A stretch of DNA of 64,000 bases from Dehalococcoidia bacterium (GCA_011171075.1 DUFD01000017.1:1777-65776), one strand, 5' to 3'. Numbered from the stretch's first letter, positions 23,205 through 63,034 are shown. The notes: generated by a model from the letters alone, not told the origin. Made by a program: numbers and translations.

Positions 23205-24677
23205 TCACCTGGTAATATCGATGAAGTAGTAAATTAATGAATCCTCTCCTGGAACTACAACCTCATCAATCTCAGCAATACGGGTCTCCACAAATGCCTC
23301 GGCTTCAAGAGCCCGTGCATAGCTCAAGACTGTAAAGGGATTATCCACAATACCCTCTATCATGATGCTATACCTGTCCATTTCGACCGCGGTGAAGGAG
23401 GCCTGTGATGGCAGAAGCCCTGTAACCAGTCCTAGATTGCCTGCGAAGTCACCTGCTCCGGCAAGCATCATCATATGTTCCTGTTGCAACGCCTGTAGAA
23501 CGGCAGCCATTTGGTTCACAAGTACCTCAGCATCGGCTTCGCCTGCGGCCGCCCGGCTGAGAGCGAGTTCAGCTAGATTCAGCTCGTGGGTTACCGTGTT
23601 TAACTCAGACTCCAGACGAGCTGTCTCGGCTACAGCATCATTCTTGAACTGGAAAAACGGAATTAATAGACCGGCAATGACTGCCAAGACACAATAAGGT
23701 ATCACATTTTTAAGCGATATATGGACATGCTTGGTTTGGTACGTTCCAGCCAGTATATTCAGCTGTGTATCATGGAAACCGTTAGTGGCCCTGATTTTCC
23801 GGAGAGCCAGGCCCATATTGGTTGCATAAAGAGCTACCGGTAATTCAGGCTGGAAGTGCAGAGGGGGGACTAGAGGCTTGACCGGATACTCCATCTCAGC
23901 CTGAATAAGCTCAGTGGTAGCACTGTTGGTCGCTAGCTGTCCCGTCAGCAGCAGTGGTGTATCAGCACTAAGCGGGTCTTCCGAATGACCGCTATTGTAG
24001 TACTTAACTGTCCTGGATAACTCATCAGTCAACTGTCGGACATGGTCGTGTATAGTCGCGCCTTCGGTCTTTGGGGTTACCGCATGCATTACCTCGGTAA
24101 TGCCATTGACTGATAAAACGATATCAAAGCACTCCGGCTCCATGGATACTACTATGGCATCGTTTTTGGCAGGTGCCCTGGCCAGAGCCAGAGGTTTCAG
24201 GTCCATTATATAGGGTTTTATACCAGCCCCAGTCAGTGTCTCCACCACAGCGGTAACAAGGTTGCGCGGCACGCCCAGAACGAAGAAATCGCTTTCATCG
24301 TCTCTTTGCGCAATAACCTGCCACGACAGGTACAGTTCGTCCACAGGTAGTGGCATCTCACGCTTCGCGGCACGCTTTATGGCCTCATCCAGAACCTCCG
24401 AGTCCACATGCGGCAAGCTCAGGATACGGTAGGTGAAGGATAGACCGGTCACGCTTACGATGACCCTCTTCTTGGGGATTCCCATTGTCTCGAAAAGGAG
24501 ATGAATGGCTTCGGCTACGGCATTCGGCTGCAAAATGAGACCGTCCCTGACCAATCCCGGGGCCAGAGGAGTGCTCCCCCATTTCTTCACCCGGCCACCT
24601 TTCATCGAAAATGCCCGGATATCACCAGCATTGATGTTCAGCGTGACATATGTTCGGCTAAAAAGTCCGTTAAGCAT
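23205..24677 (-). CDS. pilM: type IV pilus assembly protein PilM fused to a PilN-like TM/coiled-coil region
   Basis: Actin-like ATPase N-terminal ~300 aa, then a TM helix (VIPYCVLAVIAGLLIPFF), a coiled coil and a small C-terminal domain. Operon context. Confidence 0.65.
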   Translation of the reverse strand: MLNGLFSRTYVTLNINAGDIRAFSMKGGRVKKWGSTPLAPGLVRDGLILQPNAVAEAIHLLFETMGIPKKRVIVSVTGLSFTYRILSLPHVDSEVLDEAIKRAAKREMPLPVDELYLSWQVIAQRDDESDFFVLGVPRNLVTAVVETLTGAGIKPYIMDLKPLALARAPAKNDAIVVSMEPECFDIVLSVNGITEVMHAVTPKTEGATIHDHVRQLTDELSRTVKYYNSGHSEDPLSADTPLLLTGQLATNSATTELIQAEMEYPVKPLVPPLHFQPELPVALYATNMGLALRKIRATNGFHDTQLNILAGTYQTKHVHISLKNVIPYCVLAVIAGLLIPFFQFKNDAVAETARLESELNTVTHELNLAELALSRAAAGEADAEVLVNQMAAVLQALQQEHMMMLAGAGDFAGNLGLVTGLLPSQASFTAVEMDRYSIMIEGIVDNPFTVLSYARALEAEAFVETRIAEIDEVVVPGEDSLIYYFIDITR

Positions 24678-24688
24678 TATCTATCTCC

Positions 24689-25240
24689 TTACGGTTTGGC
24701 AAAGACGGCCACATCCAGGCTAGCCACAACTGGTGTAGACCCACCGGCATAGACCTCTTCACCATCTCCATAGTCCACATTAACAATCAAACTCTCGACA
24801 ATGAGGGTTTTAAAATCGCCACTTTCGAGACGGCTAACATAGTTTTTCACTGATGAGAATAATCCTGTAATATCTACATTAATTCGGAGGATGCTGTATG
24901 TATTCACGCCAATATGTACCTCCATCCACGGTTGGGTAATCAGTGGAATAGCCTTTACACCAATATCATCGGCCAGGCTAAGGATGGTATCAAGGACATC
25001 AGTACTATTAATCTCACCGGGTATCGTCACGCTCTCGGCGTCCAGAGCAGCCTGAATTACCACCAACTGCTCAGAGAAATATGTCGAAGGTTCCGGTAGC
25101 GCCTCCCGTGACTGGTTAATCTCTTCGATTTCCGATAGCAACCTCTCATGCTCCGGACCTTGCTTCATGTAGTCCATGGCCAGAAGACCATAAACTACCA
25201 GCAGGACAATGCCTATAAGTATAATAGCCAGCTTGTTCAT
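24689..25240 (-). CDS. PilO-like pilus assembly protein
   Basis: Architecture is a single N-terminal TM helix, a coiled coil and a small C-terminal domain. Position is between pilC and pilM. Confidence 0.45.
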   Translation of the reverse strand: MNKLAIILIGIVLLVVYGLLAMDYMKQGPEHERLLSEIEEINQSREALPEPSTYFSEQLVVIQAALDAESVTIPGEINSTDVLDTILSLADDIGVKAIPLITQPWMEVHIGVNTYSILRINVDITGLFSSVKNYVSRLESGDFKTLIVESLIVNVDYGDGEEVYAGGSTPVVASLDVAVFAKP

Positions 25241-25295
25241 TAAAACATCCCCTCTTTCTTATTTCTCGCAGACCTGTATTCGCTTCACAATACGG

Positions 25296-26507
25296 TCACC
25301 CCATAGTCCCCACAATGGAATACAATGGCCCGATGAAGGAAAGAGCAATGAAACCAACCAATAACCCAGAAAGCACCGTCATGGCAGGCTCTATCATCCT
25401 CACCAGACCAGCAATTCGCTGGTCAACAGCGTACTCATATCGGTCAGCAATATTGGCAACCATAGATTCCAAGTCACCGGTTTTCTCACCCACAGCCACC
25501 ATCTCAACCATCAGGCTGGGGAACAGCCCAATTTCTGCCATCGGGCGTGACAGACCCTGGCCCTGAACCAGTTTTTCCCTGAGTTCTACCAGAGCCTGAT
25601 GGACAACTCCGTTACCGATGGACGGAACCACGATATCCATTATCTCTGGCAGGTGAAGTCCGGCTTTCAGCAACATTGCCGTCGTATGGCAGAAGTGGTA
25701 CATGTTACGCTGCAGGACAATTGGGCCTATAACCGGCATTCTCAACAGGAATTTATCAAAGGCCAGTTTTCCTTCCGGAAACCTGAGGCAAGCAATACCC
25801 AGTCCGGCTAATGCAACCAGACCTACCAGAATGTGTATTTTATAGTCTGTCAGGAAATTTGAAACACCGATAAGTATTCTTGTCTGCAGAGGCAGAGTGG
25901 CATTAAGTGTCGAGAACATTTCCACCAGTGGTGGCAGAGCTACGGTAAGCAGTATGACGGATACCCCAATCCCCATCAAGCCCAGCAAAATAGGATACGC
26001 AAGCGCACCCTGTATCTTTTTCCTTGCAGCCGCCTGCTTGTCAATATATTCTGCTATATGCCTCAGCCCAGCCTCGAGGCTCCCCGACCGCTCGCTCGCC
26101 TTCATCACCTGGCAATAGGTGCGCGAAAATACCTGTGGATATTTACTTATCGCCACAGAGAAAGAACTGCCACCCCGAAGGTCATTTATCAGGTCAGCGA
26201 TGACCTTTTTGAAGGCGGAGTTTGTGTTCTGTTCCTGCAGTAGCTGCAGTGCGTTGAGGATATTTACACCGGATTCAATCAGGGTGGCCAATTCACGCGA
26301 AAAGTCAACAACGTCACCGCCCTTTATCCCGAAGAAGCTTGGCATCAGCTCTCGGATACTTTTTTGGGGACGCACTTCTGTCAGGCTGAGGATACGCTGA
26401 TACCCTGCCTGATACAGGGCGTCTTCAGCCATAGTTTCAGAAGTGCCGTCAATCGTACCTTTTACTGTCTTTCCATCCGCCGTATAAGCTGTATACTCGA
26501 ATATCAC
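25296..26507 (-). CDS. pilC: type II secretion system F family platform protein (PilC)
   Basis: Two GspF repeats and three TM segments, 403 aa. Typical motifs ..LSRPM..FP..MV..GE.TG.L. Confidence 0.9.
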   Translation of the reverse strand: MIFEYTAYTADGKTVKGTIDGTSETMAEDALYQAGYQRILSLTEVRPQKSIRELMPSFFGIKGGDVVDFSRELATLIESGVNILNALQLLQEQNTNSAFKKVIADLINDLRGGSSFSVAISKYPQVFSRTYCQVMKASERSGSLEAGLRHIAEYIDKQAAARKKIQGALAYPILLGLMGIGVSVILLTVALPPLVEMFSTLNATLPLQTRILIGVSNFLTDYKIHILVGLVALAGLGIACLRFPEGKLAFDKFLLRMPVIGPIVLQRNMYHFCHTTAMLLKAGLHLPEIMDIVVPSIGNGVVHQALVELREKLVQGQGLSRPMAEIGLFPSLMVEMVAVGEKTGDLESMVANIADRYEYAVDQRIAGLVRMIEPAMTVLSGLLVGFIALSFIGPLYSIVGTMG

Positions 26508-26534
26508 AATCTCCTCCCGGTTAGCTGCCTCGCG

Positions 26535-28241
26535 TCAGGAAATAGACAATACGCTGCGTAGCACTTCACTCGCCGTCGTGACGCCCTCTTTCACTTTCAG
26601 CATGCCGTCGCGCTGCATTGTTACCATTCCCTGTTTGATTGCCTCGGCCTTGATATCGTCAGCACTGACCTTGGTAAGCATCGCTCTTCGAATCTCCTCG
26701 TTCATCACCAGCATCTCAAAAAGGCCAGTCCGTCCGCGGTAGCCGGTATTGGCACACAGCTTGCAGCCGGTACCTCTGTAGAAGGCAGGCGTCTCATTCC
26801 CCATTTCAGCAGAGTAAATCACACGCTCGTCCATTGTCGGCTCAACCGTGGTACGGCAATAGGGACAAATCCGACGTACCATCCGCTGAGAAATCAGTCC
26901 GGCCAGTGTTGAGGTAATCAGATACGACTCGATACCCAGATCCATCAGCCGGAAGACCATGCTAATAGCATCGTTAGCATGAATCGAGGCAAGCACCAGA
27001 TGTCCGGTAAGAGCTGCCTGTACCGCCGTCGAGGCTGTATCTTTATCACGTATCTCGCCGACCAGAATGACATCAGGATCGTGTCGAACAATAGCCCGTA
27101 GACCGCTGGCGTAGGTAATGCCAGCCTTGAAATTAACCTGAGTCTGACTTATGTCCGGAAAACGGTATTCGATAGGGTCCTCAATAGTAAGGATGTTGTT
27201 GGCATCGCGGTCCAGTTCATTAATCGACGCGTAGAGGGTAGTCGTTTTACCCGAACCTGTAGGTCCACCCACCAGTATCATCCCGAAAGGACTCTTCAAC
27301 AGCGCTTTGTATTCCTTCAGAGTGTCCGAACGAAAACCAAGCTCGGAAAGAGTGAACAGGGAGAGTGACTTATCAAGAATTCGCAGGGTCACTCGCTCAC
27401 CATAGGCAGTAGCCATGGTAGCCGCCCGAATGTCAACATCCCGACTACCCACCTTGACCGAAAACTGGCCATCCTGGGGACGTCTCTGCTCCGCAATATT
27501 CATCTCGGCCAGGATTTTGATACGGGACAACAGGGGCACATGAGCATTCAGTGGCAGCGAGAACATCTCCTGCAAGATACCATCGATACGGTAGCGGACA
27601 CGCAGGTTCTTCTCATTCGGTTCCAGATGAACATCAGAAGCCCGGTCACGAACCGCCTGCTGTATCAGCAAATCCAAGCTTTGAGCAATCGGTGTCTTGG
27701 CAATTACTTTGGAAGTGATATCGACTTCTTCGTCTAGAGGCTTGGAAAACTGGCTGACCTGTTTCTCTATCTCACCACTGGACCTGTAATTAATGTCTAT
27801 CGCCCGCTCGATATCGGAAGGAACTCCCAGCGCCACCTCAATCCGCATTCCCGTCTGCGCTCTAATGTCGCGGATAGCCCGGATATCATCAGGGTAAGCC
27901 ATAACCACCGTCAGCGAATCATTAACCACCTCCAGCGGTATAAGCGTATATTTCCGTGCCATATCCTCCGGTATCATTCGCAACGAATCAGCTTGCACGA
28001 CATGTTTCTGCAGGTCAACCAGTGGTACATTAAGCTGGACGCCGTACACTGCAGCCACGTCTTCAGCCGTAACCACCCCTTGCTTCACCAGTATCTCACC
28101 GAGTTTACCACCCTTCTCCTGCTGAACCTGCAAGGCTTCTTTCAGTTGCTCGGGAGTTATCAGTTCCTCCTCAAGCAGCAACTGCCCGATGGGCTTATGC
28201 ATCATGTTCTCGGTAGAAGACTTCAATCTCTCAATAGCCAA
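26535..28241 (-). CDS. pilB: type IV pilus assembly ATPase (GspE/PilB family) with N-terminal MshEN/T2SSE_N domain
   Basis: Walker A GPTGSGKTTT, Asp box, Walker B ILVGEIRD, His box, and tetracysteine CPYC..C..C. Confidence 0.9.
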   Translation of the reverse strand: MAIERLKSSTENMMHKPIGQLLLEEELITPEQLKEALQVQQEKGGKLGEILVKQGVVTAEDVAAVYGVQLNVPLVDLQKHVVQADSLRMIPEDMARKYTLIPLEVVNDSLTVVMAYPDDIRAIRDIRAQTGMRIEVALGVPSDIERAIDINYRSSGEIEKQVSQFSKPLDEEVDITSKVIAKTPIAQSLDLLIQQAVRDRASDVHLEPNEKNLRVRYRIDGILQEMFSLPLNAHVPLLSRIKILAEMNIAEQRRPQDGQFSVKVGSRDVDIRAATMATAYGERVTLRILDKSLSLFTLSELGFRSDTLKEYKALLKSPFGMILVGGPTGSGKTTTLYASINELDRDANNILTIEDPIEYRFPDISQTQVNFKAGITYASGLRAIVRHDPDVILVGEIRDKDTASTAVQAALTGHLVLASIHANDAISMVFRLMDLGIESYLITSTLAGLISQRMVRRICPYCRTTVEPTMDERVIYSAEMGNETPAFYRGTGCKLCANTGYRGRTGLFEMLVMNEEIRRAMLTKVSADDIKAEAIKQGMVTMQRDGMLKVKEGVTTASEVLRSVLSIS

Positions 28242-51917: not shown

Positions 51918-52302
51918 CTTAACCTCCACACTATTTTTAAATCGGGCAAACAGAACAGGTCTTATCGACCCGTTCTATGTGATTATAAAAAACAAACGGC
52001 CCCATAATCAAATAAGAGCCAATATCTGTTAGGTAGAAGTGGTTTACTGGTGTTGGCCCTTTACCCCGCCTGCCAAAGCCTTTTTATACCGACTTTGCTA
52101 CATAAAACCATGGGCACCCATTGACTTTATATGGCGTCATTATTGCCACAAAGCAACCTCTATTATAGAATGTGTTCGTTCTGATAGTGTCGAGGGTAAC
52201 CAAGATAGCCCGGTCCTCAAAGAATCTCGCTAAGTGTAAACGGTGTGCCTCGGCTCTCTTGTCAGGGGAATCGAAGGTAGACGAAAGGAATCCTACAAGG
52301 CT

Positions 52303-52734
52303 ATGAAAGCAAATCAAGAGACAGAAATTGCGGCGATGAATGTCATAAACCAGTTCGCCGAAGCATTCGCCAGGCGCGACCTCAAAGCAATGATGGCGCT
52401 GTATGCCCCAGACCCTGATGTAGTTGCCATTGGCACAGGGGGTGATGAGAAGCGCATCGGACCGGCTGATATCAAGGCCCTTTTCGAACGCGACTTTGCG
52501 CAGTTCGAGGACGCATCCTTGGAGGTTGGCCGGCATTCAGTTTCAGCGGCAGGTTCAGTGGCATGGGTAGCAGCAGATGCCATTGTCCACACAGACACCG
52601 GAGACCGGAGAATTAATTTACCGGTCCGATTGACTGTCGTGCTGGAGCGACGGGGAGACAGGTGGTTTATCGTACAGTTTCACGGATCCACGCCGGCTGC
52701 CGGGCAAAAAGAGGGTGAAGCATTCCCGACATAG
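52303..52734 (+). CDS. SnoaL-like / NTF2-fold (DUF4440-like) protein
   Basis: ..NQFAEAFARRDLKAMMALYAPDPDVV..G...........W...........R.T.VLERRGDRWFIVQFH. The start is uncertain. Confidence 0.55.
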   Translation: MKANQETEIAAMNVINQFAEAFARRDLKAMMALYAPDPDVVAIGTGGDEKRIGPADIKALFERDFAQFEDASLEVGRHSVSAAGSVAWVAADAIVHTDTGDRRINLPVRLTVVLERRGDRWFIVQFHGSTPAAGQKEGEAFPT

Positions 52735-52780
52735 TAGTATAATGTGAACGCTGACAAAGCTGACAAAGGAGGACTAACCG

Positions 52781-53572
52781 ATGGAATGGGGAATGGCAAA
52801 CCGTTTAGCACAACTGATTCAGAAAGACGGGCATGTCCTTGTCCTGCCGGTAGACCACGGCTACTTTCAGGGCCCCACCCGCAAGCTGGAGGAGCCGGGT
52901 AAAACAATCGAGCCACTCCTGCCATACGCCGACGGCCTTTTTATCACCCGCGGCGTGCTACGCTCATCAGTCGACCCCGAATTCTCGAAGCCAGTTATTC
53001 TAAGAGTATCCGGCGGCACCAGCATGGTCGGTAAAGACCTCGCCAACGAGGGCATCACTACCAGCATGGAGGAGGCAATCCGCCTTAACGTCTCGGCGGT
53101 GGGCCTGTCTATCTTCGTCGGTAGCGACTACGAGAAGGAGTCCCTCCTCAACCTCTCAAAGCTCGTCAACGAGGGAGAGAGATACGGCATACCGGTGATG
53201 GCCGTTACCGCAGTGGGACGCGAGCTGGAGAAGCGTGACGCCCGCTACCTGGCTATGGCCTGCCGCATCGCCGCCGAACTGGGAGCGCGGGTAGTCAAGA
53301 CCTACTGGTGCGAGGAGTTTGATAAGGTGGCCACGGGTTGCCCTGTCCCCGTCATCCTGGCCGGTGGCCCGCAAGTCGATACCGAGCGCGAGGTCTTCGA
53401 CTTCGTCTATGACGGTATCCAGAAGGGCGCTATCGGCGTAAACCTGGGGAGGAATGTCTGGCAGAACGAGCACCCGATAGCTATGATTCGGGCGATACGG
53501 GCGGTCGTCCACGACAAGGCGACCCCGCAGGAGGCCGAAGAACTTTACAATGGCCGGAAACAGGAAAGCTGA
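52781..53572 (+). CDS. class I (DhnA/FbaB/LsrF-type) aldolase family protein
   Basis: ..LVLPVDHGYFQGP.., ..AVGLSIFVGS.., ..RVVKTYW... AAGGAGG SD upstream. Confidence 0.7.
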   Translation: MEWGMANRLAQLIQKDGHVLVLPVDHGYFQGPTRKLEEPGKTIEPLLPYADGLFITRGVLRSSVDPEFSKPVILRVSGGTSMVGKDLANEGITTSMEEAIRLNVSAVGLSIFVGSDYEKESLLNLSKLVNEGERYGIPVMAVTAVGRELEKRDARYLAMACRIAAELGARVVKTYWCEEFDKVATGCPVPVILAGGPQVDTEREVFDFVYDGIQKGAIGVNLGRNVWQNEHPIAMIRAIRAVVHDKATPQEAEELYNGRKQES

Positions 53573-53578
53573 CATACC

Positions 53579-54619
53579 ATGAGCAATACGATGCGGGTGG
53601 CCATGTGGTACAACAACCGGGACGTGCGTATCGAGGAGGTGCCTGTCCCGGAAATCGGGCCCGGCGAGCTGCTGGTACGCATCGAGGCCAGCGGTATCTG
53701 CGGCAGCGATGTCATGGAGTGGTACCGCCTCGACCGTGCCCCGCTGGTGCTGGGCCACGAGATCGGCGGACAGGTCGTCGAGATGGGCGAGGGTGTGTAC
53801 AATTACCAGGTGGGCGACCGTGTCACAGCAGCCCATCATGTCCCCTGCAATGTTTGCCACTACTGCCTGACCGGCCACCATACCGCCTGCGAGACCCTGC
53901 GTCAGACGAATTTCCACCCGGGCGGCTTCGCCGAGTACGTCCGCCTGCCGGAAATCAATGTCGACCGCGGGGTGTTCCTGTTACCCGATAACATATCTTA
54001 TGAAGAGGCTGCTTTTGTTGAGCCACTGGCCTGCGTACTGCGCGGGCAGAGGATTGCCCGTGTAGCTCCGGGCAGCAGCGTGCTCGTCATCGGCAGCGGG
54101 ATTGCCGGACTGCTCCACGTAATGCTGGCCCACAGCCTGGGGGCGGGGCGGATAATAGCCACCGATATCAGTCATTACCGTCTGGAAGCAGCAAAACGTT
54201 TCGGGGCCAATGATACCATTCACGCCAGCGAAGACGTACCGGCCCGACTCCGCGACATTAATGGCGGGCGCCTGGCCGACACCGTTATCGTCTGCACCGG
54301 TGTCGCTCCCGCCATCGAGCAGGCACTTCACTGTGTGGACCGCGGGGGGACTGTCCTACTCTTTGCCCCCACCGACCCAGGTGTCACCATCCCGCTATCG
54401 ATAAACGACCTTCTCTTCCGTAACGACATCACCATCACCACCTCTTATGCCGGCAGCCCGGCCGATTACCAGACCGCCGTTGACCTGATTGCCGCCGGTA
54501 CCGTGCCGGTGCGCCAGATGATAACCCACCGCTTCGGGCTGGCAGATACTCAGGAAGGTTTCCGTCTGGTCGATGAAGCGGATGAGTCCATCAAGGTCAT
54601 CATCGAGCCACAGAGATAG
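53579..54619 (+). CDS. zinc-dependent medium-chain alcohol/polyol dehydrogenase
   Basis: GICGSD..., GHEIGG, structural-Zn Cys cluster C..C..C..G....C, and Rossmann motif VIGSGIAG. Confidence 0.85.
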   Translation: MSNTMRVAMWYNNRDVRIEEVPVPEIGPGELLVRIEASGICGSDVMEWYRLDRAPLVLGHEIGGQVVEMGEGVYNYQVGDRVTAAHHVPCNVCHYCLTGHHTACETLRQTNFHPGGFAEYVRLPEINVDRGVFLLPDNISYEEAAFVEPLACVLRGQRIARVAPGSSVLVIGSGIAGLLHVMLAHSLGAGRIIATDISHYRLEAAKRFGANDTIHASEDVPARLRDINGGRLADTVIVCTGVAPAIEQALHCVDRGGTVLLFAPTDPGVTIPLSINDLLFRNDITITTSYAGSPADYQTAVDLIAAGTVPVRQMITHRFGLADTQEGFRLVDEADESIKVIIEPQR

Positions 54620-55438
54620 CTATTCGATACAGGGATGTCGCCTCAGGAAGTCAATGATCACATTAGCGCTCTGTTCAACCGCCTCAAGGAAAAAACCGTG
54701 ACCTATCCCCTCCAGCATAACAAGTTCGGCATTGGGTATCCTCGAAGCAAGCAGCCTTGAATTCTCTGGAGAAACCATCTTATCGGTATCCCCGCAAAGA
54801 ACCAGGGTGGGAGCTTTAATCTCGGGGAGACGGCCATAGTTATCATAGTTTATTATAGCTTCGTACTGAGCTATCAGAGCATGGATAGGCGTAATATATT
54901 CCGTTACCTTCGTAATATACTGGTCAACAATATCTTTTTCGCTTCTGATGAACTCTTGACTAACCAAGAAATTAAGCATTTCCCTCTCATGCTCTTCAGG
55001 CGTCTGCTGCTGGATAAGCTCAAAGTCGTGCAGGAAGTTTCCAGCGGGTTTATCCAACTTAACAAGGTTGGGAATTCCGCAGTGAGTGCCCCCCAAGATA
55101 AGACTCGATACCCTCTCCGGGTAGCGAAGAACAAGCTGTTGGGCGATGCACCCGCCCATAGAGATGCCAAAGATATGAGCAGTATTAATGCCGACAGCAT
55201 CAAGCAATCCGGCGACATCATTTGCCATAATCTCCATTGTATAGGGGATATCGGGCTTACCACTTTGACCGGTGCCCCGATTGTCGAAAGCGACTACACT
55301 GTATTCTAGGGATAATAAAGGAATCAACCGAAACCAATGCCCTATATGACCACCATATCCCATAATCAGGACTAGCGGTTCGCCCTCTCCGTGAGTTTCG
55401 TAGTAGATGTTAACGTCACCTACTTTAACTGTGGGCAT
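54620..55438 (-). CDS. alpha/beta hydrolase (copy 1)
   Basis: HG.GEPLVLIMGYGG, nucleophile elbow GISMGG, and C-terminal GHGFFLE. Confidence 0.85.
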   Translation of the reverse strand: MPTVKVGDVNIYYETHGEGEPLVLIMGYGGHIGHWFRLIPLLSLEYSVVAFDNRGTGQSGKPDIPYTMEIMANDVAGLLDAVGINTAHIFGISMGGCIAQQLVLRYPERVSSLILGGTHCGIPNLVKLDKPAGNFLHDFELIQQQTPEEHEREMLNFLVSQEFIRSEKDIVDQYITKVTEYITPIHALIAQYEAIINYDNYGRLPEIKAPTLVLCGDTDKMVSPENSRLLASRIPNAELVMLEGIGHGFFLEAVEQSANVIIDFLRRHPCIE

Positions 55439-55447
55439 TTTGCCCTC

Positions 55448-56251
55448 CTAAGTCATTCGGTGTCGCCTCAGGAAGTCCAGCGTTATCCGGTCTGGTTCAT
55501 CTCCTGCCTCGATGAGTATATGTCCCGCACCCGGGAATATCACCAGTTCGGCGTTCGGTATCCTTGACGCCATAATACGAGCGTTTTCTACCGGGACCAA
55601 CCGGTCGGCATCCCCGTGGATTATCAGAGTAGGCGCTTTGATCTCCGGCAGGCGCTCGTAAATATCGGTAGTACAGGACACCTGCTGTTGTCTCCTGATA
55701 CCCTGTGAAGAGGCATACTGTTTCAGCCGCTCGGTCTTCATTCTTTGTATGACGCCCGGATTTCTGGCAGCGAACTCCGGTGTCACACACAACCGCATCA
55801 TGGTTTCGGCCCTTTCTTCAGGGTCTGCCATCGCCGGACTGGAAAGAATCTTCGCAACCTCAGCATCCGGCTCGACCATGTGCGGGCCCCCGCAATGTGT
55901 CACGGATAAAACGAGGCTTCTCACCCTATCAGGATAAAACAGGGCAAATAACTGGGCTATGCCTCCCCCAAGCGATGCACCAAAAACATGCGCTGAACTA
56001 ATATCAATGGCATCAAGTAATCCGGCAACATCTCCGGCCATCATCTCCATGGTATAGGGAATATCGGGGGCATCAGTCCGGCCTGCCCCCCTATTATCAA
56101 AAAAAACCAAACGATATTCTGGAGAGTATATCGGGATTAGCTCGGTGTAAATCTCGGTGGTCACGGCAGCGCCATTTATCATGACCAGCGGCTCTCCATT
56201 TCCATGTATCTCATAATACATATTGATATCGCCGACCTTTACCACAGGCAT
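55448..56251 (-). CDS. alpha/beta hydrolase (copy 2, tandem paralog)
   Basis: MPVVKVGDINMYYEIHGNGEPLV.., GASLGG, GAGHILIE. The N-terminus parallels copy 1. Confidence 0.85.
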   Translation of the reverse strand: MPVVKVGDINMYYEIHGNGEPLVMINGAAVTTEIYTELIPIYSPEYRLVFFDNRGAGRTDAPDIPYTMEMMAGDVAGLLDAIDISSAHVFGASLGGGIAQLFALFYPDRVRSLVLSVTHCGGPHMVEPDAEVAKILSSPAMADPEERAETMMRLCVTPEFAARNPGVIQRMKTERLKQYASSQGIRRQQQVSCTTDIYERLPEIKAPTLIIHGDADRLVPVENARIMASRIPNAELVIFPGAGHILIEAGDEPDRITLDFLRRHRMT

Positions 56252-56671: not shown

Positions 56672-57079
56672 CTATGTTTTCTCCTTCTCCTCTGTGCTGA
56701 AGTCGAGCGCTATCGAGTTCATGCAATAGCGCTGACCTTCCGGCAGTGGACCGTCATCGAATACATGACCAAGGTGGGCATCACAGCGCGCGCACCTGAC
56801 CTCGGTGCGGGCCATACCAAGGCTATTATCCGGTGCCGTTTCCACCGACTCTGGTGAAATTGGCAAGCGGAAACTCGGCCAACCGGTACCAGAATCATAC
56901 TTTGCCTCGGAGCTGAACAGCCTGTTGCCACAGCACACACAAGTGTAGACACCCTTGTCCTTGGAATTGTAGTACCTACCGGAGAAAGCAGGTTCGGTAC
57001 CGCCACAACGGGCGACCTCGTACTGCTCGGGCGTTAGCTGCCGGCGCCACTCGCCGTCGCTTTTTACCACTTTTTCCAT
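56672..57079 (-). CDS. msrB: peptide-methionine (R)-S-oxide reductase
   Basis: CxxC pairs (YTCVCCG.., [13 protein letters not shown]), GTGWPSF, and ..RYCMNS. Confidence 0.9.
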
Positions 57080-57100: not shown

Positions 57101-57478
57101 TTAGCCCACGGGCACCAGGTACAGCTTACCGCCCTCACCGGCCTCTTTGACCATTTCCGAGTGCATCAGGGGTACGAGCTGGACCTTCAACTCTGTCTCA
57201 GAGAGTCCCAGCCCTTCCATCACCTCTTCCCTGGTCACCCTGCCCCTACTCTTAACAAAATCGTAGACACTCCGTTCGAGCTCGGTGAGTTTTTCAGCGC
57301 GCTTCATACCCGGCTGTACTCCGGAACGCTTGTCGACATAGGTCGCCCACGGGTCACACTCCTTCATCGACAGTCCGGTGTCCATCAGGCAGTCTTCACA
57401 AAATACCTTGCCCTGATATATGTAGCTCTGGTTCTCGGTCAGTTCGCGATGACAACGGTTACACTCCACGGTTATCAC
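57101..57478 (-). CDS. zinc-ribbon + winged-helix small protein (hypothetical regulator)
   Basis: N-terminal CNRC..(x17)..CEDC. C-terminal wHTH-like LTELERSVYDFVKSRGRVTREEVMEGLGLSETEL. Confidence 0.45.
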   Translation of the reverse strand: MITVECNRCHRELTENQSYIYQGKVFCEDCLMDTGLSMKECDPWATYVDKRSGVQPGMKRAEKLTELERSVYDFVKSRGRVTREEVMEGLGLSETELKVQLVPLMHSEMVKEAGEGGKLYLVPVG

Positions 57479-57638
57479 CCCCCTACCTCATAATGTACCT
57501 GCCCTATTTTACCATTACTCATACAAGTGCCATCAAGCAGCCATTTAATCCCGCAGTATATATTAATCATTATGTTAATCAGATACATTATTGCGCCCCG
57601 GAATCAAGCCAAGTATAATGAGCCTGAGGTCAACCACA

Positions 57639-58484
57639 ATGTCCCCTTTGGATTTCCCCAGAAGCGTTCTGGTAGAGACTACCCTGCGGTGTCCGGCCGA
57701 CTGTATCTTCTGTCCCAATAAGAAGATAACCGACCGTCCCATAGATATGCCCTGGGAACTGTTCACAAAGATAGTTGACGATTGCCGGGGAAAAGGTGTT
57801 ACAGAGTTTCATCCCTTCATAAACGGCGAGCCGCTGGCCAGCCCTTACCTGGAAGATTCCCTCGATTATATTTCTCGAAATTTACCAGAAGCAGCTGTTC
57901 ACATTTACACTAACGGCTATCTCCTTGATGATTCAACGGCTTCGATTTTGCTGCGGTGTCGCAATGTACGCGAGGTCCACTTCTCCATCGACGGTTTCTC
58001 CAAGCAGGTCTATGAACAGCACCGTCGTGGACTTGTCTACGAGCGTGTAATCGCAAATGTCAGGAGCTTCCTGGACAGGCTCAGGCATCATCCGGAACGG
58101 ATAGCCACGCGTGTGGTCTTCACCATGACGCCCGATAACGAAGGAGAGGTAACGGCCTTCCGCCGCTTCTGGGATGGGCTGGTTGATATGGTTGATGTGT
58201 TGCCGTGTGATGGCCGTGGAGGCGAAGGCCGGTTACCGGCTTTTATGGATGCACAAAGGCTCGGCTGTTTCCAGGTTACGGACCGCACTTATATTCTATC
58301 TGATGGTACTGTAGTGCTTTGCTGCAAGGACTGGGCTGGCTATACGGCGCTCGGGAACGTAAAAGATGAGTCACTGCAGTCTATCTGGAACTCCCCGGAG
58401 TACCGACGCCTGCGTGACGATATAGGCCAGGGTAGAATCGCCGATTGCGAGGTCTGCCGCCGGTGCGTGTCCGATAAGCTTTAG
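57639..58484 (+). CDS. radical SAM protein with SPASM/twitch-type C-terminal domain
   Basis: CPADCIFC (CxxxCxxC). C-terminal C-x12-G-x4-CC ... CEVCRRC. The start is ambiguous (TTG 57591, ATG 57618, ATG 57639). I prefer 57639 because of GAGG ~10 nt upstream. Confidence 0.8.
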   Translation: MSPLDFPRSVLVETTLRCPADCIFCPNKKITDRPIDMPWELFTKIVDDCRGKGVTEFHPFINGEPLASPYLEDSLDYISRNLPEAAVHIYTNGYLLDDSTASILLRCRNVREVHFSIDGFSKQVYEQHRRGLVYERVIANVRSFLDRLRHHPERIATRVVFTMTPDNEGEVTAFRRFWDGLVDMVDVLPCDGRGGEGRLPAFMDAQRLGCFQVTDRTYILSDGTVVLCCKDWAGYTALGNVKDESLQSIWNSPEYRRLRDDIGQGRIADCEVCRRCVSDKL

Positions 58485-59128
58485 GCGCTATTTGCCTTGT
58501 GCCCCTTCACAATCAGCATGATGTGCTGCGGTACTATCTCCTGCGTTTCCGCAATCTCGCCGGTGTGCTCCGTCATGATTTTATCGATAGTGAGTGTGAC
58601 CTCGGGTAACTCCGTGTTGTAGTCGTGGAAACCAAGGACACCGCCTTCGACCAGATTTTGCCAGATAATATGAAAATCGTTACGTACGTAGTCCGGATGG
58701 TGATTACCATCAATAAAACCGAAGATAAACTTCTGCTCCGGAGGAAAGGAGACCGCCTTCGAGTCCTGTCTGATAGTGACAATGTTGTCCAGACCTCGGA
58801 CAGCTTCCTCATAGACATCAAGCTGTGAACGCCCTTGGAGGAAAGCCAGGTAAATATCGGACATCCTGATACCATCGGGCGTTGCCGTATCGTCGACGTC
58901 GGGATTAAAGATGTCAATGGCGAAAATGCGTTTGTCGTGCTTACGAGCATACCTGGCCAGCTTGGCAGTACCGCCACCCACGAAGGAACCGATTTCAACC
59001 AGGTCCCCCTCCAGCCTGTGCAGCGAGCGTGCCTCTATAAAATCAAGTAGTACCTCATAGCCAACGAAGTCAATGGCTAGAGCTTTTCTGGGGTACAGAT
59101 TTCGTAGGAATTGGCGTAGACTCTGCAT
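58481..59128 (-). CDS. class I SAM-dependent methyltransferase (Methyltransf_24/CmcI-TylF-like)
   Basis: DLVEIGSFVGGGT motif I, FAIDIF, FIDGNHH, and GGVLGFHDY. Confidence 0.7.
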   Translation of the reverse strand: MQSLRQFLRNLYPRKALAIDFVGYEVLLDFIEARSLHRLEGDLVEIGSFVGGGTAKLARYARKHDKRIFAIDIFNPDVDDTATPDGIRMSDIYLAFLQGRSQLDVYEEAVRGLDNIVTIRQDSKAVSFPPEQKFIFGFIDGNHHPDYVRNDFHIIWQNLVEGGVLGFHDYNTELPEVTLTIDKIMTEHTGEIAETQEIVPQHIMLIVKGHKANSA

Positions 59129-59139
59129 CTGGGTCTATC

Positions 59140-60150
59140 TTAGAGAAGATTCAGTATGGTCGATTCGGAGTCGGCAAGTACTGCCAGTATTACGCCGGCG
59201 GCTGTCCAGGTGGTCTTTTCGTCCGGGGGATATATTATTTCCTCCGGTAGCCTGATTCCCGTCCAGAAACCGCCGTCTGTGTCCTGCATCGGCAGTACCC
59301 AGTCCAGCAGGGTATCGGCTACTTCGATTTCACCAATACCGACCAGTGCCATCGCCAGCTCACAGGTCTCGGCAACGGTAACCCAAGGCTGGTCAAGCGA
59401 ACATTTGCATCCCCAGCCATCGACGACAAACTCCGGCCACTGTCCCGCAAGGTGCTGGACAGCCTCTTCGCCAGAGACCATCCCCGTGAGTACAGGATAG
59501 TACCAGTTCATTGCATAACCACGCCGGTTATCACCTTGGACATCGAAAAGTTCGGGGTGTTCCCTGATAGCCCAGGCCAACCTAGTGGTTGCCCTCTCCC
59601 AGTCTGGGCGGTCAGACCCAAGCGTCCCGGCAATCTTTACCGCGCTGGTGATGCTCTGACAGATGCAACTCGAGCCCGTCAGCGGTGCACTCGGCCAGGG
59701 TATGTCCTGATAATCGAGTGCCCAGTAGACTTCCCCGGTCGGCTGTTGCAGGCTCAGCGTGAAATCGATGCCCTTTTCCACCACCGGCCACATATCATGG
59801 AGAAATCGTTTATCTCTGGTTACCACATAGTGGAGCCACACCCCGCTGGCTACATAGGCGCTGTGGTTGGTGTCCTTGGCAGGCTCCTTCCGTTGATCGT
59901 CATGGTAGGTATACCACCAGCTCCCGTCAGGGTTCTGTATTTCGGCCAACCAGCGATAAGCCTTCACGGCAGGCTCATGCATCCCGCACATGTCCAGAGC
60001 AATGGCACACTCGACGTGGTCCCAGGGGTCGGTCACGCCGTTCTCATACCAGGGGATAGCGCCGGAAGGCAGCTGGCGGGCAACAATGAATTCACCGATA
60101 TTATCGATAAAACGCCGCAGGTGCGAAGTCGTCATCCTGGAGCTAAGCAT
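59140..60150 (-). CDS. alpha/alpha-toroid protein (prenyltransferase/squalene-oxidase-repeat-like)
   Basis: Repeated ..Q..DGSW/GGFW.. motifs (QLPSGAIPWY, QNPDGSWWYTY, QQPTGEVYWA, QDTDGGFWTG). I prefer the start at 60150 (GGGGGGA SD, 8-nt overlap with the upstream stop). The listed 467-aa ORF is over-extended. Confidence 0.5.
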   Translation of the reverse strand: MLSSRMTTSHLRRFIDNIGEFIVARQLPSGAIPWYENGVTDPWDHVECAIALDMCGMHEPAVKAYRWLAEIQNPDGSWWYTYHDDQRKEPAKDTNHSAYVASGVWLHYVVTRDKRFLHDMWPVVEKGIDFTLSLQQPTGEVYWALDYQDIPWPSAPLTGSSCICQSITSAVKIAGTLGSDRPDWERATTRLAWAIREHPELFDVQGDNRRGYAMNWYYPVLTGMVSGEEAVQHLAGQWPEFVVDGWGCKCSLDQPWVTVAETCELAMALVGIGEIEVADTLLDWVLPMQDTDGGFWTGIRLPEEIIYPPDEKTTWTAAGVILAVLADSESTILNLL

Positions 60151-60871
60151 CGGTATCCCCCCAATGGTTCTTGCGAGCATAGAGGACGACACTCTTGGCA
60201 GTAAGGGGATTGAGCATTTTCTCAAGCAAACGAACTGGCCTTGTCCCGGTCGTGATATCCCAGACGAGGAAGCGATGGTAGAGAGCTGGAATACGTGCGT
60301 CTCTCCGGTTGATGCCGAAGATACAGCGAAGTAGCCAGTAGAAGAAGTGGAGGCCATGTTTGCGGCGACTGGTAAAAACATGGAGTCCGTTCTCCTGCAA
60401 CAGGGTGACAAGCTGCCGAAAACGGTATTTGCGGACGTGCCCCCCGGGCTGATTGCGGTATTCCGGTGATATTCTCCAGTATATGGCCTCGCTGAAGTAG
60501 GTGGGCACGCTGATGGCCAGGGTACCGTCGTCTTTGAGAACACGGGTCAGCTCACGTATTGCCTGCTGGTCATCAGGGACGTGCTCCAGCACTTCGGAAC
60601 AGATGACTTTATCGAAATGGGTATCCTTGAAGGGTAGTCGCAGGGCATCCCCTCTACAGACAGACCAGTTAGCCCGGGACTCTCCTGCCTGCTCCATAAG
60701 GTTCAGGAGGTAGTGCGTCTTGGCTACGTTTTCCGGGTCAATGTCCAGGGCACAAACGGTGCATTCGGTCTCCTTGCACGCCTGCGAAGCGTGTCTCCCC
60801 TCACCACAGCCAACATCGAGCAGCCGTTCGCCCTCTTGGAGCCGCAGCAGGTCATAGTCAACTGTGAGCAT
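60143..60871 (-). CDS. class I SAM-dependent methyltransferase (Methyltransf_11-like)
   Basis: LLDVGCGEGRH motif I, ALDID, FDKVICSEVLEHV, and DDGTLAISVP. The start MLTVDYD at 60871 overlaps the GT4 stop by 14 nt. Confidence 0.85.
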   Translation of the reverse strand: MLTVDYDLLRLQEGERLLDVGCGEGRHASQACKETECTVCALDIDPENVAKTHYLLNLMEQAGESRANWSVCRGDALRLPFKDTHFDKVICSEVLEHVPDDQQAIRELTRVLKDDGTLAISVPTYFSEAIYWRISPEYRNQPGGHVRKYRFRQLVTLLQENGLHVFTSRRKHGLHFFYWLLRCIFGINRRDARIPALYHRFLVWDITTGTRPVRLLEKMLNPLTAKSVVLYARKNHWGDTDA

Positions 60872-62096
60872 CCAGAAGCTCCTCGTATACCCGGACGGTA
60901 TTGACGGCTGTCTGACGCCATGAGAAGTTTTCCAGAACACGCTGCCTGCCGGTATTCCCCATGTTACTGCCAAGTTGTTTATCAAGGAGCAGACACTTAA
61001 GGGCTGCTGCCAGGTTATCCGGGTCTGCCGGCGGTACCAGGAGACCGGCTTTACCATCTTTACCCACCACTTCTGGCAGGGCACCGGCATTTGTCGAAAC
61101 TATCGGTAGACCACAGGACATCGCTTCTGCCGCGGGGAGTCCAAATCCCTCGTAGAGGGACGGGACAACAGCTATCTCGGTGCTGGCATAGAGCCGGGCC
61201 AGTTCGTCCTTATCTATCTTTCCGGTAAATGTTACGGCATCCGCAAGTCCGTGTTTCCGAATGAGGCGGGTCGGTTCACCATCCGGCGAACCGTTACCGA
61301 CCACGGTAAGCTTCGCCGGGATTTCCTGTCTGACCTTATGGAGGGCTTCCAGCAGGAAAGGGAGGCCCTTAATATGCCCGTTACCGCTACTAACCATTAT
61401 CAGGCTATTAGGCTCCTTGGGGAATTTGCCATTATTGTCAAAGAAGTCAGAGTCAACGCCATTAAGGATGACCCGGAGAACGTTACGTCTGACCTTAAGG
61501 ATACGGTGGATATCTTCGGCTGAGTTCTCAGAGACGGTTATAATCCGGTCCAGATTCCGGGATACCCGGTTTTGCATACCGATAAATGAGTAGAACCTCA
61601 TCAACCGGAACCTGTCCCAGAGGTTTTTTGCCTGGGACAGTGCCAGGCGACGGTCTACAGGTATCGGGTGGTGGATAGTGGCCACCACTGGTACCCCGAG
61701 GCGCTTCATCAGAAGCACTCCCCAGCCGAGACACTGGTTATCGTGGATGATATCGAACTTCACCTCTGGCATTAGAGCTCGTAGATGGTTATAAGCGCGG
61801 ATGCTGAAGGTAAATGGCTCAGGAAATGTGCCCAGAGATACCGCCAGGAATTCATACAGGCGCAGGGGATTGCGCAGGCGTGGAATCTCCTGCCACCACC
61901 TGCGCGTCGACTCATACAGGTTCAGGCTTTCCAGCTTGTGTACCGTGATACCATCAGCGACCTCAGGATAGGGTGGACCGGACAACACATGTACCTCATG
62001 CCCCAGTTTCTGGAGCTCTCTCGAGAGATAATAGATATATATGCCCTGCCCGCCGCTGTACGGATTGCCTCTATAGGATAAAAGACAGATTCTCAA
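60858..62096 (-). CDS. glycosyltransferase family 4
   Basis: N-terminal ..GGQGIYIYYLSRELQKLGHEVHV.. and C-terminal E(x7)E region ..PSLYEGFGLPAAEAMSCGLPIV. Confidence 0.9.
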   Translation of the reverse strand: MRICLLSYRGNPYSGGQGIYIYYLSRELQKLGHEVHVLSGPPYPEVADGITVHKLESLNLYESTRRWWQEIPRLRNPLRLYEFLAVSLGTFPEPFTFSIRAYNHLRALMPEVKFDIIHDNQCLGWGVLLMKRLGVPVVATIHHPIPVDRRLALSQAKNLWDRFRLMRFYSFIGMQNRVSRNLDRIITVSENSAEDIHRILKVRRNVLRVILNGVDSDFFDNNGKFPKEPNSLIMVSSGNGHIKGLPFLLEALHKVRQEIPAKLTVVGNGSPDGEPTRLIRKHGLADAVTFTGKIDKDELARLYASTEIAVVPSLYEGFGLPAAEAMSCGLPIVSTNAGALPEVVGKDGKAGLLVPPADPDNLAAALKCLLLDKQLGSNMGNTGRQRVLENFSWRQTAVNTVRVYEELLDAHS

Positions 62097-62502
62097 CTGT
62101 ATCCGCTCTTCTCCGTTATCACGGTATACGCTGGTACATCAATATGCCAATGTACCGCCAGCCCTGAAGAGGCACGAAGCGGATAAATAATACTACGAGA
62201 AAACACGAAATGCAAGTCGGAATGCATATTTATATGGAACTCTGTCCCACTTTTCCAATGCAAATCGTATCCCCTCAATCAATATTTCCGGTACAATACG
62301 CTCACCTTTGCCCACGTGACTCTCTTTATATGTTGGAAATCCCTTCCGCCAAACTGCCCCCTCACCGTTTCTTGTAGTCCGCAAGTGCGTCTCGCTTGAT
62401 TTTCCTCTCGCGGACTGGACAGAAGACTATAAAATCGATGTCTCCTGCCTGTCCTGACTGCTACTTACGTCAGTGATTGACAATACTGCAAAACTATAGG
62501 AC

Positions 62503-62525
62503 AATAGTTAATATAATTAACTATT
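62503..62525. promoter_or_regulatory. perfect 10-3-10 palindrome (candidate MarR operator) containing TATAAT
   Basis: AATAGTTAAT-ATA-ATTAACTATT (62503-62525). TATAAT at 62512-62517. It lies ~55 nt upstream of the MarR ATG. Confidence 0.5.
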
Positions 62526-62578
62526 TTGATAGGAAACTATTCTCTTTGGCAACCAATTATGCTCAAGGAGTGCCTGAA

Positions 62579-63034
62579 ATGAATACCGAAATACTCGACA
62601 GCATCGCCGAAGACCTGTTTACCATCCCGCCCCTAATCGGCAGGAGTATCCGGAGAAAGCTGCTAAGGATAGCTATGGCACACATCCAGGAGGACATTTC
62701 ACCACCCCACTTTGAAATTATGAAGACACTGGAAGAAGCCGGGGTGTTGCACGTCACTGAAATCGGTGAGAGATTACAGATACCTAAACCACAGATGACA
62801 CACCTGATAGATAAACTGGTCTTTCTGGAAATGGTAGAGAGACAGCCAGACGCAAACGACAGGAGAATAATCAATATTACCCTTACCAGCAAAGGTAAAA
62901 CACTCCTAAAAAAGCATCGCCGGATGATAGAGGACGCTATCAAGAAGAGCCTTGCTTCGCTGACCGATGAAGAACTGGCAGAGCTATCGACCTCATTGAG
63001 GAAGCTGCGCCAGATATTTTTAAAACTGGAATGA
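62579..63034 (+). CDS. MarR family transcriptional regulator
   Basis: wHTH ..FEIMKTLEEAGVLHVTEIGERLQIPKPQMTHLIDKLV..MVERQPDANDRRIINITLT.KG. AAGGAG SD lies before ATG 62579. Confidence 0.85.
   Translation: MNTEILDSIAEDLFTIPPLIGRSIRRKLLRIAMAHIQEDISPPHFEIMKTLEEAGVLHVTEIGERLQIPKPQMTHLIDKLVFLEMVERQPDANDRRIINITLTSKGKTLLKKHRRMIEDAIKKSLASLTDEELAELSTSLRKLRQIFLKLE

Follow-up and report, generated by a model that had tools for sequence, protein, structure and literature searches.

We analyzed a 64,000-nucleotide (nt) stretch of DNA from a Dehalococcoidia bacterium (GCA_011171075.1, DUFD01000017.1:1777-65776), referred to here as the window, and focused on four minus-strand genes that probably form a counterpart of the mycobacterial cluster for 3-O-methylmannose polysaccharide (MMP). 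In the direction of transcription, the first gene (60858..62096; 412 amino acids [aa], TTG start) encodes a GT4 glycosyltransferase that resembles the alpha-(1->4)-mannosyltransferase ManT. It is followed by MTase-A (60143..60871; 242 aa, ATG at 60871), a pMeT3-like class I S-adenosylmethionine (SAM) methyltransferase of the Methyltransf_11 family and a putative 3-O-methyltransferase. The third gene (59140..60150; 336 aa, ATG start) encodes an (alpha/alpha)6 protein that resembles the endo-alpha-(1->4)-mannosidase MmpH, and the fourth, MTase-B (58481..59128; 215 aa), encodes a predicted Methyltransf_24/TylF-class sugar O-methyltransferase that sits in the position of meT1 without being its orthologue. 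The start of MTase-A lies 14 nt inside the GT4 gene, the MmpH-like start lies 8 nt inside MTase-A, and MTase-B begins 11 nt past the MmpH-like stop. Facing them on the plus strand is a small radical-SAM (rSAM)/SPASM gene (57639..58484; 281 aa), whose stop overlaps that of MTase-B by 4 nt and which may be a lineage-specific accessory. A first-pass annotation, made from the sequence alone, had described this order, the overlaps and gap, and an AT-rich 160-bp spacer beyond the rSAM gene, all of which we could read in the DNA. Its domain calls for the GT4 protein and the two methyltransferases were right by Pfam (GT4, Methyltransf_11, and Methyltransf_24), as was Radical_SAM plus SPASM. We also agree that the four minus-strand genes make up one tightly coupled pathway. 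They occur in the same order in all comparable Dehalococcoidia loci, so the arrangement is not due to chance.

MMP is made of 11 to 14 alpha-(1->4)-linked 3-O-methylmannoses and carries a 1-O-methyl aglycon. A 2019 PNAS study by Ripoll-Rozada reportedly dealt with the mycobacterial MMP cluster. In M. hassiacum, this cluster consists of ManT (MHAS_04402), pMeT3 (04403), MmpH (04404), and MeT1 (04405), and the structures of ManT and MmpH have been solved as 7QSG and 7QSJ, respectively (Maranha 2023 Commun Biol, PMC9883506). ManT lengthens alpha-1,4-oligomannosides from GDP-Man, while MmpH cuts mature MMP to yield defined oligomers, the primers of new chains, and is needed for mycobacterial biosynthesis. 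MeT1 methylates the free reducing end of this intracellular polysaccharide (PMC9883506). The gene order in the window is that of MHAS_04402-04405, with the fourth slot taken by a methyltransferase other than MeT1. The first-pass annotation had been unable to assign the genes to any characterized pathway. They do fit one, as the cluster matches that of mycobacterial MMP biogenesis (PMC9883506). Judged by homology, the locus is a member of the MMP cluster type in its ManT, its pMeT3-like enzyme, its MmpH, and its gene order, but it has no MeT1 orthologue.

When the GT4 protein was searched against the Protein Data Bank (PDB) with phmmer, M. hassiacum ManT (7QSG) was the best match at E 3.2e-95, with the next best at 4e-27. 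Identity to 7QSG was 43.6% over 401 columns. For residue tests, we mapped HMMER alignments onto the numbering of PMC9883506. Eight of ten ManT residues were kept (G15, H142, K240, E313, G314, F315, L317, and E321). The exceptions were L291, which is Ile here, and D293, which is replaced by Lys296 with D295 and D297 flanking it. The D293 position is variable across Dehalococcoidia, and the residue after it is acidic in 30 of 34 proteins. Based on the E value, the identity, and the conservation of G15, H142, K240, E313, and E321, the gene is predicted to encode a ManT orthologue. Between it and the MmpH-like gene, MTase-A (Pfam Methyltransf_11, 4.4e-22) takes the place of pMeT3 (MHAS_04403), so that a Methyltransf_11 enzyme lies between manT and mmpH in both systems. 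MTase-A is 41 to 45% identical over 96 to 98% of its length to the genes in the same slot of Actinomycetota loci, including that of Peterkaempfera griseoplana (L072). These identities were measured against proteins of the Actinomycetota loci, and the likeness to mycobacterial pMeT3 rests on the slot.

The third protein had been described in the first pass as a prenyltransferase/squalene-oxidase-repeat-like toroid. Its best PDB match was M. hassiacum MmpH (7QSJ), an MMP endo-alpha-1,4-mannosidase, at E 1.8e-78 and far before the next match, with 45.2% identity over 305 columns. Ten of eleven MmpH residues were identical (D47, W49, D50, N101, T163, M215, Y219, E262, E265, and W315), and F102 was His. 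Those kept include the acid (D47/D50) and the catalytic base (E262). The start codon is backed by full-length homologues of 336 aa. The best NCBIfam match was partial, to the GH15-type "oligosaccharide amylase" TIGR01577 (6.4e-15). By homology, then, this toroid belongs to the glycoside hydrolases and is orthologous to MmpH, with the acid/base pair of a hydrolase. The (alpha/alpha)6 fold of the first-pass annotation stands, and its terpenoid or prenyl-type enzyme does not.

That annotation had further considered the enzyme mix, including a terpenoid-type fold, compatible with a modified glycolipid or an isoprenoid-linked envelope product. All that favors this is a sub-threshold Pfam match to SQHop_cyclase_C (E 2e-4, 20.9 bits against a cutoff of 26.1) and weak matches to squalene-cyclase TIGRFAM models, which arise because QxxDGSW-like motifs are common to (alpha/alpha)6 barrels. 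Neither a DxDD nor a DDxxD motif is present in the 336-aa sequence. With the strong MmpH match, we therefore rejected a terpenoid or prenyl toroid. The product assignment fares no better, since the whole cluster resembles a characterized pathway with a cytoplasmic product. No membrane protein, flippase, polyprenyl-phosphate transferase, or other polyprenyl gene was found among the genes scanned, and all six proteins encoded from 57101 to 62096 are without transmembrane (TM)-like segments, which fits a cytoplasmic pathway. We regard the terpenoid proposal as scarcely credible. The first-pass annotation had itself named a glycoside hydrolase in place of the toroid and a match to a known pathway as outcomes that would count against it, and we found both.

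Homologues of the MmpH-like protein are numerous (5,479 at E<=1e-10). The best 120 of these 5,479 are metagenome or metagenome-assembled genome (MAG) proteins, and those among the 120 that carry a taxon name belong to Dehalococcoidia or Chloroflexota. An identical protein with the same neighbors is present on JGI contig Ga0209427_10046347, and one JGI homologue record is already labeled "MMP endo-(1,4)-3-O-methyl-alpha-D-mannosidase." Several other homologues (P0063, P0064, and others) have been named "prenyltransferase" or [quoted passage not shown] by NCBI, which is probably a systematic misannotation of the MmpH family. We found no NCBIfam model for MmpH or MeT1. Separately, a 1.4-kb contig binned as Desulfobacterales (L079, JAOZRC010001007.1) carries an MmpH homologue with 43% identity, which could reflect mis-binning or the reach of the family into a third phylum.

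To place the locus among its relatives, we scanned species-representative genomes and obtained 80 loci, about 68 of them from Chloroflexota and the rest from Actinomycetota (Acidimicrobiia, Streptomycetaceae, and others). Clustering of open reading frames (ORFs) around MmpH was noisy due to shadow ORFs and served solely for recognizing the rSAM family and the group 2 upstream gene, which proved to be rsmG. Upstream and adjacency counts cover the loci with enough flank to judge. The nearest loci, both at 81%, are in Dehalococcoidales CP070842.1 and Dehalococcoidia DUEV01. All fell into three synteny groups. Group 1 comprises Dehalococcoidia, including the window, with the order ManT, MTase-A, MmpH, MTase-B; ManT lies upstream of MmpH in 31 of 31 loci with room for it. 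Group 2 comprises other Chloroflexota (L030, L031, L037, L039-L042, L044-L055, L058-L068, L070, and L071) and has only MmpH and MTase-B (30/30). No ManT or MTase-A was found in the 5- to 8-kb flanks of the 25 group 2 loci where this could be assessed, and in L040, the pair lies directly downstream of rsmG. Metagenome loci L093-L142 share the group 2 architecture. Group 3 comprises Actinomycetota, in which ManT, an MTase-A homologue (41 to 45% identity), and MmpH are present in 9/9 loci. A true MeT1 lies nearby (E 6.3e-70 to 6G7D), usually on the opposite strand, and MTase-B was not detected in these group 3 loci. Across the 80 loci and in each of the three groups, MmpH keeps its catalytic residues without exception. 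In group 1, drift is seen at the subsite residues F102, T163, and M215, and in group 2, whose MmpH homologue is about 50% identical, the subsite residues are fully mycobacterium-like.

The fourth enzyme is where the window departs from mycobacteria. MTase-B has a Methyltransf_24 domain (4.9e-13), and in a sequence search of the PDB, its only notable matches were 6G7D (MeT1), 6G80, and 6H40, at E 0.06, with 16 bits for MeT1. Aligned family against family with hhalign, MTase-B and MeT1 gave 97.6% probability, E 3e-12, and 26% identity over 133 columns, with EIGS, FIDGxH, and HD motifs common to both. The AlphaFold2 (AF2) model of MTase-B (pLDDT 93.5) had MeT1 as its top Foldseek match in the PDB (E 3e-10, TM score 0.62 to 0.68, 20% identity), where 6G7D and 6G80 are given as M. 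hassiacum MeT1. It was followed by the sugar O-methyltransferases SpnH, MycF, NovP, and CalS11. Across 30 family members, D140, H143, D169, and Y170 do not vary. By domain, fold, and these Asp/His motifs, MTase-B fits a TylF-class metal-dependent sugar O-methyltransferase, the metal binding being predicted.

An exhaustive phmmer search recovered 876 family representatives at E<=1e-3 and 130 at E<=1e-10. This large separate family excludes MTase-B as a simple MeT1 orthologue, although the remote homology is real. We conclude from these comparisons that MTase-B is truly, though remotely, related to MeT1, occupies its slot, and belongs to a separate TylF-like family. It adjoins MmpH in 34/34 group 1 and 30/30 group 2 loci. 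Because it always lies beside the enzyme whose products MeT1 caps in mycobacteria, reducing-end capping is the most economical proposal for its function. Members of the family are also placed in ordinary polysaccharide loci, and some relatives are fused to GT2, a Wzx-type flippase, or a B12-rSAM domain.

Taken together, we consider it likely that the four genes are the Dehalococcoidales counterpart of the actinobacterial MMP cluster, by which a soluble cytoplasmic polymethylated alpha-(1->4)-mannan would be made and recycled. In this model, ManT would use a nucleotide-mannose, probably GDP-Man, as donor to extend short alpha-1,4-oligomannoside primers, and the pMeT3-like Methyltransf_11 enzyme would O-methylate the added mannoses with SAM. 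MmpH, as an inverting endo-hydrolase (acid D41 or D44, base E261), would cut mature chains into new primers ("partially conservative replication"). MTase-B, predicted to be Mg dependent and of the TylF class, would modify the fragments, most plausibly by capping the new reducing end as MeT1 does, and the rSAM/SPASM protein may add one further modification. The donor sugar, the linkage, the methylation positions, and the capping step are assigned by analogy with the mycobacterial system. So is the physiological role, which may be acyl-chain binding or cold and stress adaptation, as proposed for mycobacteria. What is new is an MMP-type cluster in Chloroflexota, with a different fourth enzyme and an rSAM neighbor; the pathway itself is known.

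Several points weigh against this assignment. To our knowledge, there is no product chemistry for any Chloroflexota organism. No GDP-mannose synthesis gene, and no sugar-nucleotide or polyprenyl gene in general, was found among the scanned window ORFs of at least 180 aa, in line with what had been annotated earlier. The Asp of ManT that is proposed to read guanine, D293, is Lys here, so GDP-Man is a presumed donor. The subsite drift of MmpH in group 1 suggests that substrate detail may differ. MTase-B lacks the "HHxGSEExQPGWExH" insert of MeT1, and the 16-bit MeT1 match would miss the 150 best listed members of the MTase-B family. Since it is not a MeT1 orthologue, 1-O-capping is proposed by analogy. 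Finally, pMeT3 is itself only putative in mycobacteria (PMC9883506).

Some of these same points would be expected if the same enzyme families made another polymer, similar to polymethylated polysaccharides (PMPS) in kind but differing in sugar, linkage, or methylation pattern from a 3-O-methyl-alpha-1,4-mannan. The base-reading Asp of ManT is not conserved, the MmpH subsite varies within group 1, the fourth methyltransferase is of a different subfamily, and identities to the characterized enzymes are about 44 to 45%. However, all catalytic and most sugar-binding residues of the two solved enzymes are kept, including the mannosyl-binding loop of E313, G314, F315, and L317, and nearly 70 orders of magnitude in E value set the ManT match apart from other GT4 proteins in the PDB. 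We therefore judge a different polymer to be very unlikely. If the locus instead served catabolism or scavenging, breaking down methylated mannans of external origin, this would account for MmpH being a hydrolase and for the group 2 loci, which hold MmpH and MTase-B and no glycosyltransferase. In the window, however, translation of the hydrolase gene is coupled to that of one glycosyltransferase gene and two methyltransferase genes. There is no transporter, secretion signal, or TM segment, and mycobacteria need the same hydrolase for biosynthesis. Catabolism is highly improbable on these grounds, and we retain the biosynthetic MMP-type assignment.

We next considered the convergent rSAM gene. 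Its 281-aa length is that of its homologues and of the L001 gene call. The protein matches Pfam Radical_SAM and SPASM, and no NCBIfam model reached its cutoff. The CxxxCxxC motif begins as early as residue 18, leaving no room for an N-terminal domain. Its AF2 model (pLDDT 85) matched compact SPASM/Twitch folds with TM scores of 0.6 to 0.7, with the sugar-acting enzymes BtrN, DesII, and BlsE ranking beside the peptide maturases SuiB, SkfB, and anSME. A role in maturing a ribosomally synthesized and posttranslationally modified peptide (RiPP) was rejected. As had been noted in the first pass, there is no sign of a precursor peptide, in that neither the spacer by the rSAM gene nor the related loci hold a conserved small ORF. 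The protein has no RiPP recognition element (RRE) domain, and RiPP maturase models all scored far under their cutoffs.

The clade of the window rSAM contains 81 clusters, all at least 58% identical, and its taxon-named members are all Dehalococcoidia or Chloroflexota. In no fewer than three flanking contexts (L082/83, L085/86, and L087/88), clade members converge on MTase-B. In group 2, a distant rSAM/SPASM protein (29% identical, collinear) is encoded co-directionally after MTase-B with a 4-nt gap in 9 of 26 loci. In metagenomes, this group 2 type has MTase-B upstream in every locus with room (36 of 39 within 300 nt, the other three slightly further), and MmpH lies beyond it in 22/22. On L092, a single 478-aa polypeptide (P0203, L092:6001-7437) combines Methyltransf_24 of the MTase-B type, Radical_SAM, and SPASM. 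It begins 10 nt past an MmpH homologue (L092:4999-5991), and an assembly or frameshift artifact is possible. These associations, a fold as near to BtrN, DesII, and BlsE as to peptide maturases, and the missing RRE domain favor a pathway of five genes in which the rSAM is integral and, with MTase-B, would modify the glycan or its reducing end by radical chemistry (oxidation, epimerization, or C-functionalization), giving a methylated polysaccharide of a new class and not MMP.

Other observations argue against such a pathway. The rSAM gene lies on the opposite strand, so co-translation with the operon is impossible, and adjacency within one narrow clade is explicable by inheritance alone. An rSAM gene adjoins the cluster in only 8/31 group 1, 9/26 group 2, and 0/10 Actinomycetota loci. 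The four-gene set is conserved in group 1 Dehalococcoidia, and the rSAM gene is an accessory neighbor in roughly a quarter to a third of the Chloroflexota loci. The operonic and fused type shares 41% identity with a phage-borne type and only 29% with the window rSAM. The fusion evidence is therefore not directly transferable, and we gave less weight to carrying it over to the window rSAM. Locus L084 has a window-type rSAM without an MMP-type cluster. We conclude that an integral five-gene pathway is unlikely and treat the window rSAM as a possible lineage-specific accessory of the MMP-type cluster. Its participation in the pathway is possible, though we lean somewhat against it. A broader proposal is that Chloroflexota have their own intracellular PMPS family, built on an MmpH-type hydrolase and a non-MeT1 capping methyltransferase, often with a dedicated rSAM, of which the window would be a five-component variant. 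We find this doubtful. If it were true, the Chloroflexota rSAM proteins, whether operonic, fused, or convergent, would perform a radical modification of glycans that is new to PMPS, and the five-component product would be chemically unlike mycobacterial MMP, in strictly anaerobic uncultured Dehalococcoidales.

Further observations on rSAM genes came from the related loci. The L084 gene (L084:8001-8837, 60% identical to the window rSAM) has a left flank like those in L082 and L085 (MscL, a cupin, a 333-aa protein, and an acetyltransferase) and is followed by two-component and KaiB genes. In L082 (12527-13771) and L085 (12572-13816), a 414-aa B12-binding rSAM protein (class B, methylase-like) is encoded on the manT strand, 170 to 340 bp upstream of that gene. 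In a family member, P0250, Methyltransf_11, B12-rSAM, and Methyltransf_24 are fused. Three phage-like loci (L143:46-2216, L144:2694-4876, and L145:3580-5780) encode a 460- to 470-aa class I methyltransferase with a weakly GT2-like C-terminal half, start/stop-coupled to a 262-aa rSAM/SPASM protein that is 40 to 44% identical to the group 2 rSAM. Structural genes lie by this pair: in L145, Pfam identifies an HK97-type capsid gene upstream, and in L143, a head-tail connector gene lies downstream. This setting suggests a virion-associated modification module.

The flanks of the cluster are also described here. Upstream of manT, 380 bp of intergenic DNA (62097..62476, 46.8% GC) separates it from a divergent MarR-family gene, confirmed by Pfam, and is the presumed promoter region of the operon. 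One promoter-like match was found there on the minus strand (62455-62426), but promoter and terminator matches in our scan were not above chance. An Rfam scan of the window gave no match. At the other end, the AT-rich spacer (57479..57638, 160 bp) has 41.2% GC compared to 52.5% for the window and contains small ORFs that are all unconserved. It separates the rSAM gene from a minus-strand gene (57101..57478) for a 125-aa protein of unknown family with an N-terminal CxxC...CxxC (zinc-ribbon), possibly a regulator and of doubtful membership. Three scans gave no Pfam or NCBIfam match for this protein, and the "wHTH" label it had received could not be verified. It occurs beside the cluster only in L001, L004, and L011, with L004 and L011 having it at the opposite (manT) end. 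Three loci with two positions make for a weak link to the cluster.

The four-gene operon has 54% GC, near the window average, and thus shows no sign of recent transfer. Compared to L087, L003, and L004, the rSAM gene and the four cluster genes are flipped as a single unit whose MsrB and MarR flanks are unchanged (window 57101-63034). The remainder of the window is ordinary chromosome, with pyrF, mfd, RNase PH, ychF, type IV pilus, and two-component system genes along with MTHFR, a NuoF-like gene, ABC-2 exporters, and MarR. At 54620-56251, the minus strand encodes two tandem paralogous alpha/beta-hydrolases (272 and 267 aa) with similar N termini (MPxVKVGDxNxYYExHGxGEPLV), with MsrB (56672-57079) after them and SnoaL-like, DeoC-like aldolase, and Zn-ADH genes (52243-54619) before. 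In related loci such as L087, the hydrolase is present in a single copy. Elsewhere, a 909-aa ORF without a Pfam match lies beside PilM-like, T2SSF (PilC), and T2SSE (PilB) genes (19495-22224 and 23205-28241), and a 278-aa protein (5862-6698) consists almost entirely of leucine-rich repeats (LRR_4, 7e-50), in an apparent Dehalococcoidales chromosome.

MMP and the 6-O-methylglucose lipopolysaccharide (MGLP) of mycobacteria have been seen as peculiar to mycobacteria and a few actinomycetes, and they are studied as modulators of fatty acid metabolism and possible drug targets. The presence of the cluster in dozens of Dehalococcoidia species would make this "self-replicating" polysaccharide system much older or more mobile than thought, and it would work in organisms that are strictly anaerobic and differ greatly in envelope and lipid metabolism. 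Natural variants, with another capping methyltransferase and an optional rSAM, would be at hand for dissecting the control of chain length and end capping. The assignment also sets right the "prenyltransferase/squalene oxidase repeat" annotations that thousands of MAG proteins carry. A full-text literature search found nothing linking methylmannose to Chloroflexota or Dehalococcoidia and no post-2023 follow-up. The 2023 MMP survey took in Actinobacteria only (PMC9883506).

Compared to the mycobacterial MMP cluster, the window has the same first three genes in the same order, tight coupling, soluble proteins, and a Methyltransf_24-fold enzyme in fourth place. Catalytic and most substrate-binding residues are shared, with 44% identity for ManT and 45% for MmpH. 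The host, however, is an anaerobic member of Chloroflexota (Dehalococcoidales) and not of Actinomycetota. The fourth enzyme is a remote homologue (20 to 26% identity) without the MeT1 insert, ManT D293 is not kept, MmpH F102 is His, and an rSAM/SPASM gene directly adjoins the cluster. In other Actinomycetota (Acidimicrobiia and Streptomycetaceae, L069-L081), MMP-type clusters are alike in the synteny of ManT, the pMeT3-like enzyme, and MmpH but have a true MeT1 (E 6e-70 to 6G7D), usually on the opposite strand, and an rSAM gene in none of ten loci. The acetylated MMP of Streptomyces griseus shows that polymer decoration specific to one lineage is compatible with the cluster.

The MGLP system of mycobacteria (Rv3030-Rv3032) is built on glucose and involves a GH57 branching enzyme and acylation. 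It is similar in that a GT4 alpha-1,4-glycosyltransferase and a SAM methyltransferase produce a cytoplasmic polymethylated polysaccharide, but it uses glucose and not mannose and has a GH57 branching enzyme where the window has an MmpH-type hydrolase. No window protein had its best matches there. TylF, MycF, SpnH, NovP, and CalS11 share the fold of MTase-B and the D...D/H...D metal-site region and rank just under MeT1, but they act on macrolide or aminocoumarin deoxysugars and are 14 to 18% identical to MTase-B. Lastly, the window rSAM has in common with BtrN, DesII, BlsE, SuiB, SkfB, and anSME the radical core and a C-terminal Cys-rich auxiliary-cluster domain. It is 15 to 20% identical to these SPASM/Twitch enzymes and, like BtrN and BlsE, is without an N-terminal RRE domain.

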